Origin: an uncultured bacterium
GTDB lineage: Bacteria; Patescibacteriota; Minisyncoccia; Phycocordibacterales; Phycocordibacteraceae
DNA length: 64,000 nt
Assembly: GCA_903825105.1 (NCBI GenBank)
Contig: CAIJZI010000006.1
Coordinates: 87,368 to 151,367 of the forward strand
Direction: 5' to 3'
The notes under the pieces are model-generated. The model made no database searches. It had not been told where the DNA came from and saw only the letters and a program-made list of their open reading frames with translations. The translations under genes and the position numbers were made by a program. Of this stretch, positions 31,876 through 62,099 are shown one piece after another. How positions within the stretch are numbered: position 1 is the stretch's first letter; the number at the start of each line of letters is the position of its first letter.

Positions 31876-32100
31876 GAGTGTTTGGTGAGAAAAATGAGGA
31901 AATAGGCCACCATTCCGACTTCCTGCTTTATCCCACCTGAATTGAATTATATGCCACTCTGCCCCACTTCCCTAGTTTAGTTATCCACACCACTTCGCGT
32001 TGTCGAGTACGCCAACGCTTCGCGGTGCACGCACAACGATTTGATTTTTATATAGATAAGTACTATTGTTCCTCTCGGAAGTGTTACGGAAGGAGCTTCT

Positions 32101-32325
32101 ATGTCATTCGCAAGAAAAATTAACGCTCTTAACGCAAGGCGCAAACGTCGTGCCGCCAACAAAACAAAGACGCACATCGACAATTCTTCCCTCCCGGCAG
32201 GTTCACCAATGTACTTTTATTGCACTGATTGCGATGGGCAGATCGTAGTCCCCGAAGATTACGCCACTCGCCCGAAGCTCTGTAGAGAGTGCCAGGAAAT
32301 GAAAGATCTTGGGTGGATAAAATGA
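32101..32325 (+). CDS. small zinc-ribbon protein
   Basis: 74 aa; CTDCDG...CREC; GGAAGGAG RBS. Confidence 0.5.
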   Translation: MSFARKINALNARRKRRAANKTKTHIDNSSLPAGSPMYFYCTDCDGQIVVPEDYATRPKLCRECQEMKDLGWIK

Positions 32326-32433
32326 CAAGTGCCCGTCTGAACAAAAAACAGGCGGGCATTTCCTTATCTTGATAAATACTCAATAACTTGGAAGTCCAAT
32401 TTTTAAATTGGTTTACAAGCTATCCACACCTCA

Positions 32434-32461
32434 TTGCAAATTCATTTGACGCGGGTATAAT
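32434..32461 (+). promoter_or_regulatory. sigma-70-like promoter TTGCAA-16-TATAAT
   Basis: Near-consensus hexamers with a 16-nt spacer. Confidence 0.55.
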
Positions 32462-32467
32462 AGTGGT

Positions 32468-32560
32468 GTGTCCGTGGGCGCAAGCCTATTTCGGATAAGG
32501 AATTCCAAAGCCGAGACGGGCACATCAAAACACCTCACTCTTCTAGGAGTGGGGTTTTTT
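32468..32560 (+). ncRNA. candidate small RNA (about 93 nt), class unknown
   Basis: Promoter just upstream; terminator cctcactc-ttctag-gagtgggg then TTTTTT; internal GCAA tetraloop hairpin; 5'/3' helix gtgtccgt/acgggcac. Confidence 0.4.
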
Positions 32561-32981
32561 GATTTTCGCCCAATTTCATAACGCTCCAAAAATGAATGTG
32601 TTCTCCGCCAACAACTCTTCTTAAAACAACACGAACTCTGGTATTCTTTTTACCAACAATAGATTCTACTGTCCAATATTCCATTTCTTTTAAAACTATC
32701 TTTCTGGAGCCGCCGAGTGGCGCAATTCTCCGTTCATATTTTTTAACAACAGTCGCTTCGTGTATAGCTGGGCGCACGAGCGGGAGGAGCCCGAGTTTGT
32801 ACATTGCTTCTTTTGGATTCCTCGGCGTGTTGTCTATCTTAAAACGCAAATGGTTGAATCCTTGCATATTGAAATAAATGTATTCACGCACCGCAATACA
32901 ATAGATTGGGAGCCATTTTTTATAATCATCGCGGCGTTCGTTTAACAAACTGAGAAATCTTTTCGCCATAGCGATAATCAC
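32535..32981 (-). CDS. hypothetical protein (weak KEAxxK similarity to AcpS-type phosphopantetheinyl transferases)
   Basis: 148-aa ORF whose start overlaps the lysS stop; RNPKEAMYKLG motif only. Confidence 0.35.
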   Translation of the reverse strand: MIIAMAKRFLSLLNERRDDYKKWLPIYCIAVREYIYFNMQGFNHLRFKIDNTPRNPKEAMYKLGLLPLVRPAIHEATVVKKYERRIAPLGGSRKIVLKEMEYWTVESIVGKKNTRVRVVLRRVVGGEHIHFWSVMKLGENQKTPLLEE

Positions 32982-34453
32982 TATCTCGGACGCATCAGCG
33001 GAAAGATTTGTGCTTCGCGCACGGAGACACCTTCGAGGAAGCTAAAGAGTCGTTCGGAGACGCCAAAGCCGAACGCTGGCGGCATGCCGTATTCAAGCGC
33101 TTCGACGAATTCGCCGTCTGCCATCTGCGCCTCGTCGTCACCCGCCTCGCGAAGCTCCTGTTGATGCATAAAGCGCTCTTGTTGATCGACAGGATCATTT
33201 AATTCACTAAAGCCTTTACCCACTTCAGAACCAGCGATCATCACCTGGAATCGCTCGACGACACGAGGGTCTTTTATACTCTTCTTCGCGAGTGGCTCCA
33301 TATAGACCGGCACATTGATCAAGAATCCTGGGCCTTGAAGCGTCTTTCTGATCTGCTTCCATGCGGTATCAACCAAGCGTTCTTTATTGCTGTCTTTTTC
33401 GAATGGAATTTCTTTTTCAGCAAGCACTTTTGACCAATCGGCATTTTCATCAAGCGGATCACTCCCATATTCTTTTTGCATCAATTCGCAGAAGTCATAG
33501 CGTTCCCATTCTTTATCAAAATCAATTTCAAAATCTTTAATTTTAAATACGCGCGTGCCGTACACCTTATCAGCGATGGTGCGATAGAGATCTCTAATCA
33601 TCTCCATTCCCGCTTCATAATCTTTAAAAGATTCATAGAACTCAACCTGCGTGTAGTCCTGGAGATGTTCTGCCGACATTCCTTCATTTCTAAATATTCT
33701 GCCAATTTCAAAAACCTTCGGGAGGCCCGCGACCATTAAGCGCTTCTGCCAGAGCTCTCCCGCCGAGATGCGCAGGTAGACATCGATATCGAGTGCGTTG
33801 TGATGCGTCTCAAATGGACGCGCGTCGGCGCCACCGGTCGTCGTCTCGAGAACCGGCGTTTCTACTTCAATAAAATCTCGTTCGAGAAGATAGGAGCGAA
33901 TCGCATTCCAAAACGCTGATCGACGGCGAATGCGATCAGGAAAATCTTTTGAAAGCAGGATGTCGAGATAGCGCTTTCTAAATCTCTCGTCTTCATCTTT
34001 AATCCCGTACCACTCGTCGGGTAGCGGGCGAAGCGACTTGGCGAGCATCCGCCAACTACTCACGCTTAAAGAAGGCATCCCGCGCTGCGTTTTAAAAGCG
34101 AGTCCAGACAATTCGATAATATCGCCGATATCAACCGTCGCGACAAAAAGATCGTAGACAGAATCTCCAAGCTTGTCGCGTTGTAGGAAGCACTGGCCCT
34201 TGGTCCCGTCAAAAAGATCAAGAAAGAGTGACCCGCCGTGTTCGCGTATCGACATCACACGCCCTGCGAGCGCGACTTCTTCGCTATTCTTCTCAAGCGT
34301 TTCGTGATTTTCTAAAAATTCTTTTACTGAATGCGTCCGCCCTGTTCGTGCAGGATACGCTTCCATTCCCTCCTCTTTCATGCGAGCTATCTTCGCGAGT
34401 CGCTCCGCGCGCACGGTATCAAGTAAAGCCATATGCTCACTAGTATACAACAA
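32981..34453 (-). CDS. lysS: lysyl-tRNA synthetase, class II
   Basis: OB-fold N-domain; class II motifs (FRNEGMSAEHLQDYTQVEFY; GGADARPF). Confidence 0.9.
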   Translation of the reverse strand: MLYTSEHMALLDTVRAERLAKIARMKEEGMEAYPARTGRTHSVKEFLENHETLEKNSEEVALAGRVMSIREHGGSLFLDLFDGTKGQCFLQRDKLGDSVYDLFVATVDIGDIIELSGLAFKTQRGMPSLSVSSWRMLAKSLRPLPDEWYGIKDEDERFRKRYLDILLSKDFPDRIRRRSAFWNAIRSYLLERDFIEVETPVLETTTGGADARPFETHHNALDIDVYLRISAGELWQKRLMVAGLPKVFEIGRIFRNEGMSAEHLQDYTQVEFYESFKDYEAGMEMIRDLYRTIADKVYGTRVFKIKDFEIDFDKEWERYDFCELMQKEYGSDPLDENADWSKVLAEKEIPFEKDSNKERLVDTAWKQIRKTLQGPGFLINVPVYMEPLAKKSIKDPRVVERFQVMIAGSEVGKGFSELNDPVDQQERFMHQQELREAGDDEAQMADGEFVEALEYGMPPAFGFGVSERLFSFLEGVSVREAQIFPLMRPR

Positions 34454-35057: not shown

Positions 35058-35990
35058 ATGTCAGAAGAAAACGGGGTGTTGGTTCCAATCAAAATTGAGG
35101 AGACTTCAGAGGCACAAAAATATTTGATGCTCCTGCTGAACGAGCAAGTGTTTGAGCTTTTTCGGCAAGATGATGTCTTACTACGTCCATCAGCGGAGAT
35201 GAACCGGCATGATCTCTGGGAAAACCTGAAAATCGTTCGAACAAACCCAACAGCTCATGTCGGATATTGGCTTGGAGCCTCAGTTAAAGCTCAGGCATCA
35301 AATACTGGCCACTTTTGGCTCAACGTCCATATGACGGTCTGGCCCTCTGATGGCAACAAGATGGTCTTTCTCACGCCAAACCAAACACACTGGATTTGCG
35401 ATCGTTTGAAGACGAATCCTCTATTGAAGGAAATTCTCACCACTTACGTCTCCAGTGTTGTCGTCAGTCTCCGAAATGGGCTTGACCGTCTTCAAAAGGA
35501 TATCGATGACGGCAATTTCTGGGAGGACAGGAGCAAGCACAACGGAGTCTTCGATGTGGCGTCACGCGAGAATCCCTATCGGGGTTGGTATACCAGCTGG
35601 GACGCTTTCCTTGAAAATGTCTGCCCTCCGCCGCCGTGGCTAACACCAGGTCCTAATCTGCAGTATCAGTGGGATCGGATTAAGATGATCGGCGGAAAAA
35701 GGTTAGATGAAAAATTTCGCAAACAGTGGGTCTGGCGTAAGCTGAGGCCCACTTTCATTACTGTCCAACATACGACGAACTTTCTGCATGGAGAGAATCA
35801 AAAAGTTGTTGCATCACGTTCACTGATTGTTCGCCAGCACCTTGCGGCCCACGCTCGAGCACCACAGCGAAGGCGTATTGAGGCTTGTCATATGGGAAAA
35901 ATCCTTCAACCCACGAGTTGTCATACTGATTATGCGTGCCGGTCTGCGCGGTGCCCGTTTTCGCCGCGACAGAAACATATGGCAAATTAA
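35058..35990 (+). CDS. hypothetical Trp-rich protein, atypical codon usage; 3' end uncertain
   Basis: Long ORF with lower GC and different codon preference; the last about 230 nt are antisense to mrdA. Confidence 0.4.
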   Translation: MSEENGVLVPIKIEETSEAQKYLMLLLNEQVFELFRQDDVLLRPSAEMNRHDLWENLKIVRTNPTAHVGYWLGASVKAQASNTGHFWLNVHMTVWPSDGNKMVFLTPNQTHWICDRLKTNPLLKEILTTYVSSVVVSLRNGLDRLQKDIDDGNFWEDRSKHNGVFDVASRENPYRGWYTSWDAFLENVCPPPPWLTPGPNLQYQWDRIKMIGGKRLDEKFRKQWVWRKLRPTFITVQHTTNFLHGENQKVVASRSLIVRQHLAAHARAPQRRRIEACHMGKILQPTSCHTDYACRSARCPFSPRQKHMAN

Positions 35991-61850: not shown

Positions 61851-62099
61851 GTTGAATTATCGTTATGGATAAATCCGGGTCGGCGGGTAGCACAAAACCC
61901 GCCACCAGGAGCCCTTGCGGGCCTATAGGAGTTTCCCCCTATAACGCATCGAACGCCCTGATGACGGGTTTTCTAGGTTCGATGCGATTTGCGACCATGC
62001 CATTGACCGAAGTCACTGGTTTAGGTCGGTACTAGCCAAAGCTAGTACCTTAAAGATATCTCACTTTAGGGGTTCTGCGAAGACCTTGCTTGAAGACAA

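Follow-up and report, generated by a model that had tools for sequence, protein, structure and literature searches.

The RNAs of type III toxin-antitoxin systems (ToxIN, CptIN, and TenpIN) are encoded as tandem repeat arrays upstream of the toxin gene, on the same strand and under the same promoter, and are processed by the ToxN/AbiQ, CptN, or TenpN endoribonuclease (PMC5086642). In the par system of pAD1 (Fst/RNA I-RNA II), convergent promoters and one bidirectional intrinsic terminator produce transcripts with complementary 3' stem-loops (PMC7472228). The par toxin is a 33-amino acid (aa) hydrophobic peptide, and RNA II pairs with the 5' region of the toxin mRNA through the direct repeats DRa and DRb (PMC7472228). 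Here we describe a locus that shares features with both. It consists of a gene for a 93-nucleotide (nt) RNA and a convergent gene for a 144-aa protein, and it lies in 64,000 nt of DNA from an uncultured patescibacterium (contig CAIJZI010000006.1, positions 87,368 to 151,367). This whole stretch is referred to as the window, and coordinates without a locus name are those of the window.

The likeness to type III systems is that a protein gene is tightly coupled to the gene of a small structured RNA, with an intrinsic terminator between them, and that both are mobile, patchily distributed and linked to defence islands. By analogy, the mode of action that we propose would also be similar, with an excess of RNA binding and neutralising the protein. 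The likeness to par is that transcription is convergent and ends at a common bidirectional terminator. However, the protein here is basic, soluble and 120-160 aa long rather than a hydrophobic peptide of less than about 60 aa, there is no 5' complementarity, and the conserved three-way junction of the RNA has nothing to pair with. By its defining features, the locus is neither a type I nor a type III system.

Two further comparisons concern the protein and its relation to the RNA. Known LPD3 domains (PF18798) sit inside giant multidomain polyvalent proteins of phages and conjugative elements (PMC5512222), whereas the protein here is stand-alone, encoded in cellular Patescibacteria genomes and accompanied by a dedicated RNA. 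Its best structural matches are phage LPD3 domains. For Y RNA and Ro60 (Rsr), the gene of a small structured RNA adjoins the gene of its binding protein. In contrast to that pair, the protein here has no sequence or fold relation to Ro, and the window RNA has no Rfam Y RNA match, is much smaller and lacks a tRNA-like domain (ARAGORN).

We are highly confident that positions 32468-32560 of the plus strand are a real, conserved, folded small RNA gene, and this confidence extends to the fold and to the linkage with the protein gene. The best explanation of the locus as a whole, which we hold tentatively, is that an RNA of a new family forms a mobile cassette with an LPD3-like protein and acts as the specific partner of that protein.

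The RNA gene and its fold

The features of the RNA gene are as follows.

32434..32461 (+): sigma-70-type promoter, with -35 TTGCAA at 32434-32439, a 16-nt spacer, and -10 TATAAT at 32456-32461
32468..32560 (+): small RNA gene, 93 nt, with a three-way-junction core at 32468-32523, an A-rich linker at 32524-32531, and an intrinsic terminator
32468-32475 with 32516-32523 (+): closing helix P1, GUGUCCGU paired with ACGGGCAC
32476-32487 (+): P2, GGGC-[GCAA]-GCCU, with a GNAA tetraloop
32490-32494 with 32511-32515 (+): P3, UUCGG paired with CCGA-G
32495-32498 opposite 32507-32510 (+): 4x4 internal loop, AUAA opposite AAAG
32499-32506 (+): apical hairpin, GG-AAUU-CC

The promoter agrees with the consensus at 10/12 positions and places the predicted transcription start at about G32468, 7 nt past the -10 box. 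A promoter scan alone is not significant (2 sites in 1.4 kb compared with 1.4 in shuffles). The case for an RNA gene rests on conservation. In 21/21 distinct homologues examined, the spacing from a TTGAC-like -35 and a TATAAT/TATACT-like -10 to the first base of P1 is constant, the fold recurs, and an intrinsic terminator ends the RNA. In the window the terminator hairpin (32532-32555) has 10 pairs and is followed by T6, which runs to 32560. A covariance model of the family, R1, scores 97.6 bits across 32468-32560 and finds one copy of the RNA in the window. Two mechanical TTG/GTG open reading frames (ORFs) of 36-37 aa overlap the RNA. However, the junction varies among homologues by indels of 1-3 nt, which excludes a coding region.

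The fold is supported in several ways. The minimum free energy of the 93-nt RNA is -39.9 kcal/mol (z = -5.5), and none of 200 dinucleotide shuffles is as stable. Six diverse homologues, folded singly, give the same three-way junction and terminator (z = -4.2 to -6.9), and RNAalifold independently predicts the same junction. We found 26 distinct RNA homologues. In alignment A2 (21 distinct sequences, MAFFT), 98.7% of the cells are paired and 4 pairs are compensatory, all of them in P1; slid partners give only 35-49% pairing, and 0/500 shuffles match the covariation score. Adding divergent members through covariance model R1 (alignment A3) raises the number of compensatory pairs to 7. With two more distant members (alignment A4, 26 sequences) 8/19 pairs are compensatory, now including P3 and the apical P3b, and 98.4% of the cells are paired compared with 28-45% for slid partners; again 0/500 shuffles score as high. 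Those compensatory changes that lie outside P1 stem from five members that were found later. There are also frequent G-U pairs at four positions. These would read A-C on the opposite strand, which fixes the plus strand of the window as the functional one.

These results bear on an initial annotation of the window, made from the sequence alone, that had proposed an independent small RNA of about 93 nt rather than a 5' untranslated region. The TTGCAA-16-TATAAT promoter that it named is present and conserved in 21 homologues, the hairpin plus T6 is found at 32532-32560, the GCAA tetraloop hairpin is GGGC-GCAA-GCCU at 32476-32487, and the helix closing the ends is the pairing of GUGUCCGU with ACGGGCAC. 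Its remark that no ORF is present is essentially right, because the only ORFs are the mechanical ones and coding is excluded by the indels. Having its own conserved promoter and terminator and a fold backed by covariation, the RNA is indeed an independent one. The annotation also suggested looking for conservation of the intergenic region in relatives, and homologues with a conserved RNA were found.

The consensus begins with 5'-GUGNNNGU (P1) and continues with GGGC-GNAA-GCCY (P2), a 2-nt junction and UUCRG (P3). Then come the internal loop, AYAA opposite NAAG, an apical GG-(4-5 nt)-CC, CYGAR, 0-2 nt, the 3' strand of P1, the A-rich linker and the terminator. The GGC/GCC pairs of P2 are invariant, and the P2 loop is GNAA with a free N in 25/26 sequences. 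Two distant members, L120 and L125, have a simple loop in place of apical P3, and L125 also has CUCG for GNAA. Terminator sequences vary freely, whereas the core does not; indeed, the core is nearly invariant while the protein falls to 47% identity. The 3' strand of the internal loop, CC-N-AAG, is similar to the CCUAAG strand of the GNRA tetraloop receptor of 11 nt, and the internal loop and the P2 tetraloop are equally far from the junction. By analogy, P2 might plausibly be clamped against P3 by docking of its tetraloop into such a receptor.

An alternative is that there is no RNA gene, but only the terminator of a convergent gene together with a conserved DNA element, such as an operator or a recombination site around the GGAATTCC palindrome. 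Most members have an apical hairpin that is perfectly palindromic as DNA (GGAATTCC, GGTATACC, and AGAATTCT), and the terminator hairpin does terminate the convergent gene. However, several members are non-palindromic (GGATTTCC and TGAATTCT), the helices are maintained by compensatory changes, the abundant G-U pairs would be A-C on the other strand, and a conserved promoter keeps a constant spacing to the 5' end of P1. In addition, an inverted repeat that flanks the protein gene in the window does not recur in 12 other loci. We regard this alternative as close to negligible.

The apical hairpin has also been considered at the RNA level. In the window it reads GGAAUUCC (32499-32506), a perfect palindrome and, in DNA, an EcoRI site. 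The variants GGUAUACC (L093) and AGAAUUCU (L117) stay palindromic through double changes, and the hairpin could be a site of RNA dimerisation. An obligate RNA palindrome or dimerisation site was rejected, since three loci have the non-palindromic GGAUUUCC, L118 has UGAAUUCU, and the element is missing in L120 and L125.

The RNA does not belong to a known family. Rfam 15 holds 4227 models, including those for the bacterial small signal recognition particle (SRP) RNA, 6S RNA, transfer-messenger RNA (tmRNA) and riboswitches. At gathering thresholds, its only matches in the whole window are a LOOT RNA and two tRNAs, all of them elsewhere. A permissive scan of 32300-32700 (E <= 10) gives nothing for SRP, 6S, tmRNA or riboswitches; its matches all resemble terminators and score far too low, with RsaJ, for instance, reaching 19.9 bits against a threshold of 100. 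ARAGORN finds no tRNA or tmRNA at the RNA locus, and ten homologous loci scanned against Rfam contain tRNAs only. An SRP RNA is thereby ruled out by both the gathering and the permissive scans, which agrees with the comment in the initial annotation that the SRP-RNA domain IV consensus is not evident; the Rfam comparison that it suggested assigns the RNA to no family. Neither the core sequence nor RNA motifs of Patescibacteria led to an earlier description in full-text literature searches. The RNA therefore belongs to an uncatalogued family. Both this family and its pairing with the protein gene are new, and we place them under no existing one. The LOOT RNA (Rfam RF03000) is another structured RNA of the window, full-length at 61910-62027 on the minus strand (78.8 bits, gathering threshold 46.4).

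The convergent protein gene and the common terminator

Two features adjoin or overlap the 3' end of the RNA.

32535..32969 (-): gene of the partner protein, which has 144 aa if translation starts at ATG 32969 and 148 aa if it starts at GTG 32981; stand-alone, very basic, LPD3-like
32524..32563: bidirectional intrinsic terminator, consisting of an A-tract, the hairpin at 32532-32555, and a T-tract, with arms at 32524-32540 and 32547-32563

The RNA gene is convergent with the protein gene and abuts it tail-to-tail. The initial annotation had placed the RNA between a Zn-ribbon gene and lysS with minus-strand genes as neighbours. The gene downstream is on the minus strand, but it is the 144-aa gene (32535-32969) and not lysS, and the Zn-ribbon gene shares the plus strand of the RNA. 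What the annotation overlooked is that the RNA does not stand alone, being genetically tied to this convergent LPD3-like gene.

The linkage holds in both directions. Starting from the protein, contigs were fetched for 12 homologues that are 82% down to 28% identical to the window protein, and an RNA homologue lies immediately 3' on the opposite strand in 12/12. Starting from the RNA, a metagenome collection was scanned with a pattern of RNA core nucleotides only, which gave 19 loci. Fifteen of these have a convergent adjoining protein gene (one frameshifted) and one is cut by the contig end with the protein C-terminus still visible. Another two (L101 and L114, with the same RNA sequence) have an internally deleted protein gene. 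In the latter (112-237 of L101), about 95 codons are lost and some 30 N-terminal codons lead, through a frameshift, directly into the HFWSIMK...C-terminus; the RNA, its promoter and its terminator are intact.

The protein family is large. The 144-aa ORF is a real gene, with 113 close homologues and 240 by profile search, and a profile search of 1.84 billion cluster representatives gives 1050 at E <= 1e-3 and 433 at E <= 1e-10; among the 150 matches listed, most are stand-alone proteins of 120-165 aa. Members are 120-160 aa long, with a median isoelectric point of 10.2 (about 10 for the window protein) and a net charge of about +15. Y16, F33, G37, F38, H40, L41, R50, K58, L61, R117, F127, W128, S129, M131, and K132 are invariant, and R42 is nearly so. 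AlphaFold2 predicts a confident globular alpha/beta fold (pLDDT 89.7). In BFVD, Foldseek ranks four LPD3 or polyvalent proteins first (probability 0.99-1.00, TM-score 0.48-0.56), the best being a phage LPD3 domain (probability 1.00, TM-score about 0.55). The window protein itself does not hit the Pfam LPD3 model (PF18798), but 7/36 relatives do, the best at 26.3 bits (E = 9e-6), slightly under the gathering threshold of 27. LPD3 is the only family signal; Pfam, PADLOC, NCBIfam, and PHROGs give no match to the ToxN/AbiQ, CptN, or TenpN families. In the PDB there is neither a sequence match nor a significant Foldseek match (best E = 0.56). A Foldseek match to HigB2 was faint (probability 0.21), and a RelE/BECR nuclease fold is not claimed.

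The initial annotation had also considered that the hairpin at the RNA 3' end might serve only as a terminator for the convergent gene. The hairpin is common to both genes, but the roughly 56 nt upstream of it are the most conserved and structured part. Because an A-tract and a T-tract flank the hairpin, it can terminate both transcripts. Its extended arms are 17 nt each and 88% complementary. Across 22 loci the protein stop codon lies anywhere from 18 nt beyond the RNA 3' end to 35 nt inside it. In about half of the loci the coding region ends before the RNA 3' end, so overlap with coding sequence is not conserved. In long forms, including the one in the window, the terminator hairpin encodes the C-terminal tail (G-E-N-Q-K-x-P...); in the window these are the last ~9 codons, and the tail reads ENQKTPLLEE. 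This tail is predicted to be disordered and probably results only from the sequence of the terminator. In short forms the coding region ends immediately ahead of the hairpin.

This layout raises the question of whether the RNA is a cis-antisense regulator as in par, controlling the mRNA of the protein through complementary 3' ends, kissing of the terminator loops and subsequent degradation. Convergent promoters and one bidirectional terminator are the exact layout of par of pAD1 (PMC7472228), and the position of the stop codon in the 22 loci puts the end of the gene at or near the end of the RNA. However, the overlap with coding sequence is not conserved, and the protein is not a small hydrophobic peptide. 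No par-like 5' complementary repeats were found; the window has only short direct repeats, none of them near the start codon. The RNA core and the translation start of the protein gene have no excess complementarity (duplex z = -1.5 to +1.9, 13 loci), in other words no more than shuffles. Whole-mRNA duplex predictions give inconsistent sites, and antisense targeting of the protein mRNA was rejected on these grounds. The covarying three-way junction, the most constrained part of the RNA, is left unexplained. It is improbable that a par-like mechanism accounts for the locus, although an antisense effect through the common terminator may contribute.

What if the RNA is instead riboswitch-like or autonomous, so that its adjacency to the protein gene is mere co-mobility or serves antisense control of that gene by read-through? 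A compact junction with invariant junction and loop nucleotides, directly followed by a terminator, looks like an aptamer with its expression platform. Read-through would yield RNA antisense to the protein gene, and one locus, L100, has the RNA without that gene. However, no antiterminator pairing that would compete with the terminator is seen, and the junction and terminator fold independently in 6/6 homologues, with terminators that vary freely while the core does not. Nor is there a same-strand gene to control, since the next plus-strand gene begins at 35058, as distant as the initial annotation had said. The replacement of the P3 apex and the P2 loop in L120 and L125 would be unusual for a ligand pocket, and a linkage to one protein family that persists to 28% identity is far stronger than co-mobility predicts. 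It is very improbable that this explanation is correct.

Genomic contexts of the cassette

The window genome is a member of the Parcubacteria/Paceibacterota, and its LysS is 51-83% identical to the LysS of 80 such metagenome-assembled genomes. The order greA-lysS-[gap]-mraZ-rsmH is conserved among these relatives. However, the 80 related lysS loci contain no RNA (sought by BLASTN, nhmmer and the covariance model), no 144-aa gene and no 74-aa Zn-ribbon gene. This led us to reject a conserved intergenic RNA by lysS synteny: the RNA, the 144-aa gene and the Zn-ribbon gene are an insertion in a variable gap. That gap (31876-32981 in the window) measures from 210 nt up to 2 kb, and its cargo is unrelated from one genome to the next (L001-L018). 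Therefore, the RNA lies in an insertion hotspot inside an accessory island. Read by eye, the cargo elsewhere includes a 221-aa IS200/RAYT-transposase-like gene (L004), a GIY-YIG-like gene (L013) and a 199-aa regulator-like gene (L001).

The surroundings of the cassette in other genomes are just as varied. They include a phosphoenolpyruvate-utilising enzyme with a low-molecular-weight phosphatase; an ABC transporter with DnaJ; SLT with DUF4411 and Peptidase_M78; type IV pilus genes; IS1595 with phage-like genes; release factor RF-1 with ribosomal protein S2; Fic with GmrSD/HNH; and NYN. No conserved third gene was found, and the flanking proteins from seven loci are unrelated to one another. 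Because the contexts are unrelated and the 80 related lysS loci lack the cassette, the pair is taken to be mobile; it behaves as a mobile two-gene cassette of ultra-small bacteria, the Patescibacteria (Paceibacteria/Parcubacteria). The presence of HicAB, Fic, GmrSD/HNH, DUF4411, and IS1595 among the neighbours is a toxin-antitoxin-like hint. A phage origin was rejected, since neither the RNA pattern nor the protein profile matched anything in the 2.9 million viral contigs of IMG/VR.

Some of these neighbours deserve a closer description. Other genes near the RNA in the window and the NYN genes of other loci are as follows.

32101..32325 (+): Zn-ribbon gene, 74 aa, CxxC...CxxC, upstream of the RNA and followed by its own hairpin at 32331-32353
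35058..35990 (+): 310-aa ORF with no Pfam match
L118/L119 1612-2217 (-): NYN gene
L122 997-1509 (-): NYN gene
L100 2206-2877 (-): NYN gene

In two distant branches of the family, a gene for an NYN-domain protein (PIN-like RNase) is found upstream of the LPD3-like gene and divergent from it, and the NYN proteins of those branches are 45% identical. NYN may be an optional third component in some lineages. As a general partner it was rejected, because it flanks the cassette in only three contexts and the L100 NYN is distantly related to the other two. The Zn-ribbon gene is absent beside the cassette at every other locus examined; its product has a weak, sub-threshold match to the TraR family of phage and conjugal plasmid zinc fingers (E = 0.023).

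The 144-aa gene starts 12 nt past the lysS stop codon, or overlaps lysS if GTG 32981 is used. In the window an obvious promoter for it is lacking, and it may be co-transcribed with greA-lysS; at several other loci a TATAAT-like sequence was seen by eye just upstream of the protein gene. A 16-nt inverted repeat (14/16 complementary; 32465-32480 and 33016-33031) brackets the gene, with its arms in the RNA 5' end and the lysS 3' end. Transposon-like terminal inverted repeats were considered and rejected, since the repeat is not found again at the 12 other loci and is probably due to chance. Finally, tRNA genes occur near the cassette in L095 (2099-2242), L089 (6125-6332), L112 (1-45), and L122 (about 2290-2360, a putative tRNA read by eye). 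This proximity is consistent with genomic-island insertion sites.

A possible RNA partner for an LPD3-like protein

Given the linkage of their genes, the RNA and the protein almost certainly act jointly, as a mobile pair. How might they do so? A protein-RNA complex that is specific for sequence and shape would fit the locus, because the protein is very basic, the unpaired nucleotides of the RNA are near-invariant across the divergence of the protein, and the RNA has no pairing target. From the sequences, we consider direct binding between the two somewhat probable. The recognition surface would then be the near-invariant nucleotides of P2, the junction and the internal loop.

If the RNA is the specific binding partner of the LPD3-like protein, it would most probably neutralise the protein in the manner of a type III antitoxin RNA. 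The strong constitutive promoter of the RNA would hold it in excess, and the protein would be released when RNA synthesis stops. An inhibitory role of this kind is favoured because the cassette is patchy and mobile and lies among toxin-antitoxin, defence and mobile-element genes, because the RNA has a strong promoter of its own, and because the RNA outlives the protein gene in L101 and L114. By analogy, the module appears to work most like a type III pair, yet it fails the type III genetic definitions. The antitoxin-like role is thus a possibility that we put forward with some reserve.

Perhaps the RNA is instead a positive structural or functional subunit that forms a ribonucleoprotein with the LPD3-like protein, following the logic of Y RNA and Ro. 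A cofactor would account equally well for the strict linkage in both directions, for the basic protein and for the invariance of the RNA core, and the syntenic NYN RNase gene in some lineages (L118/119 and L122-124) could point to a larger RNA-processing assembly. However, the RNA survives deletion of the protein gene (L101/L114) or its absence (L100), which fits an antidote, or an RNA that is useful independently, better than it fits an obligate subunit. The patchy spread and the mobile-element and defence-island neighbours are also more typical of selfish or defence cassettes. On balance, it is unlikely that the RNA is a cofactor.

Several observations do not sit well with an RNA that is the specific, antitoxin-like partner of the protein. 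The RNA is single-copy, convergent and transcribed from its own promoter, unlike that of every described type III locus (PMC5086642), and no tandem repeats were found in 31900-33200. The protein has no nuclease or toxin signature, with no match in PADLOC, PHROGs, NCBIfam, or the PDB, and LPD3 domains have no assigned function (PMC5512222). In L100 (1/19 of the loci found through the RNA) there is no protein gene, and the RNA faces an NYN-domain gene beside a HicAB pair. The apparent invariance of P2 and P3 is also partly an effect of ascertainment. The metagenome pattern forced this part of the core to be invariant, and most sequences were retrieved that way. The pattern was designed from eight distinct RNAs located by way of the protein, all of which match it; the five found later, beside more distant proteins, all deviate. 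In addition, alignments A3 and A4 were fitted to the model and lean towards structure.

An RNA that is the partner of the LPD3-like protein could mean more than one new gene pair. A broader proposal is that there is a new class of RNA-protein toxin-antitoxin or defence system, widespread in Patescibacteria, in which a single convergent three-way-junction RNA specifically binds and restrains a stand-alone LPD3-fold effector and in which the LPD3 domains of phage and plasmid polyvalent proteins act in RNA binding or targeting that is specific for sequence and structure. This is speculative, and we think it rather unlikely at present. If true, it would provide the first clue to what LPD3, an orphan domain, does.

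It is rare to find a structured non-coding RNA that combines strong covariation with an obligate protein partner. The RNA described here comes with a partner family that is large and is related to a domain that phages and plasmids inject inside polyvalent proteins, and a dedicated RNA ligand would offer a direct experimental route to what LPD3-like proteins do. The module is small (~0.6 kb) and hence directly synthesisable and testable. If it is toxin-antitoxin-like, it would represent a new RNA-antitoxin architecture, in which a single convergent structured RNA and the protein gene end at a common bidirectional terminator. Its setting is the Patescibacteria, in which accessory and defence biology is almost unexplored.

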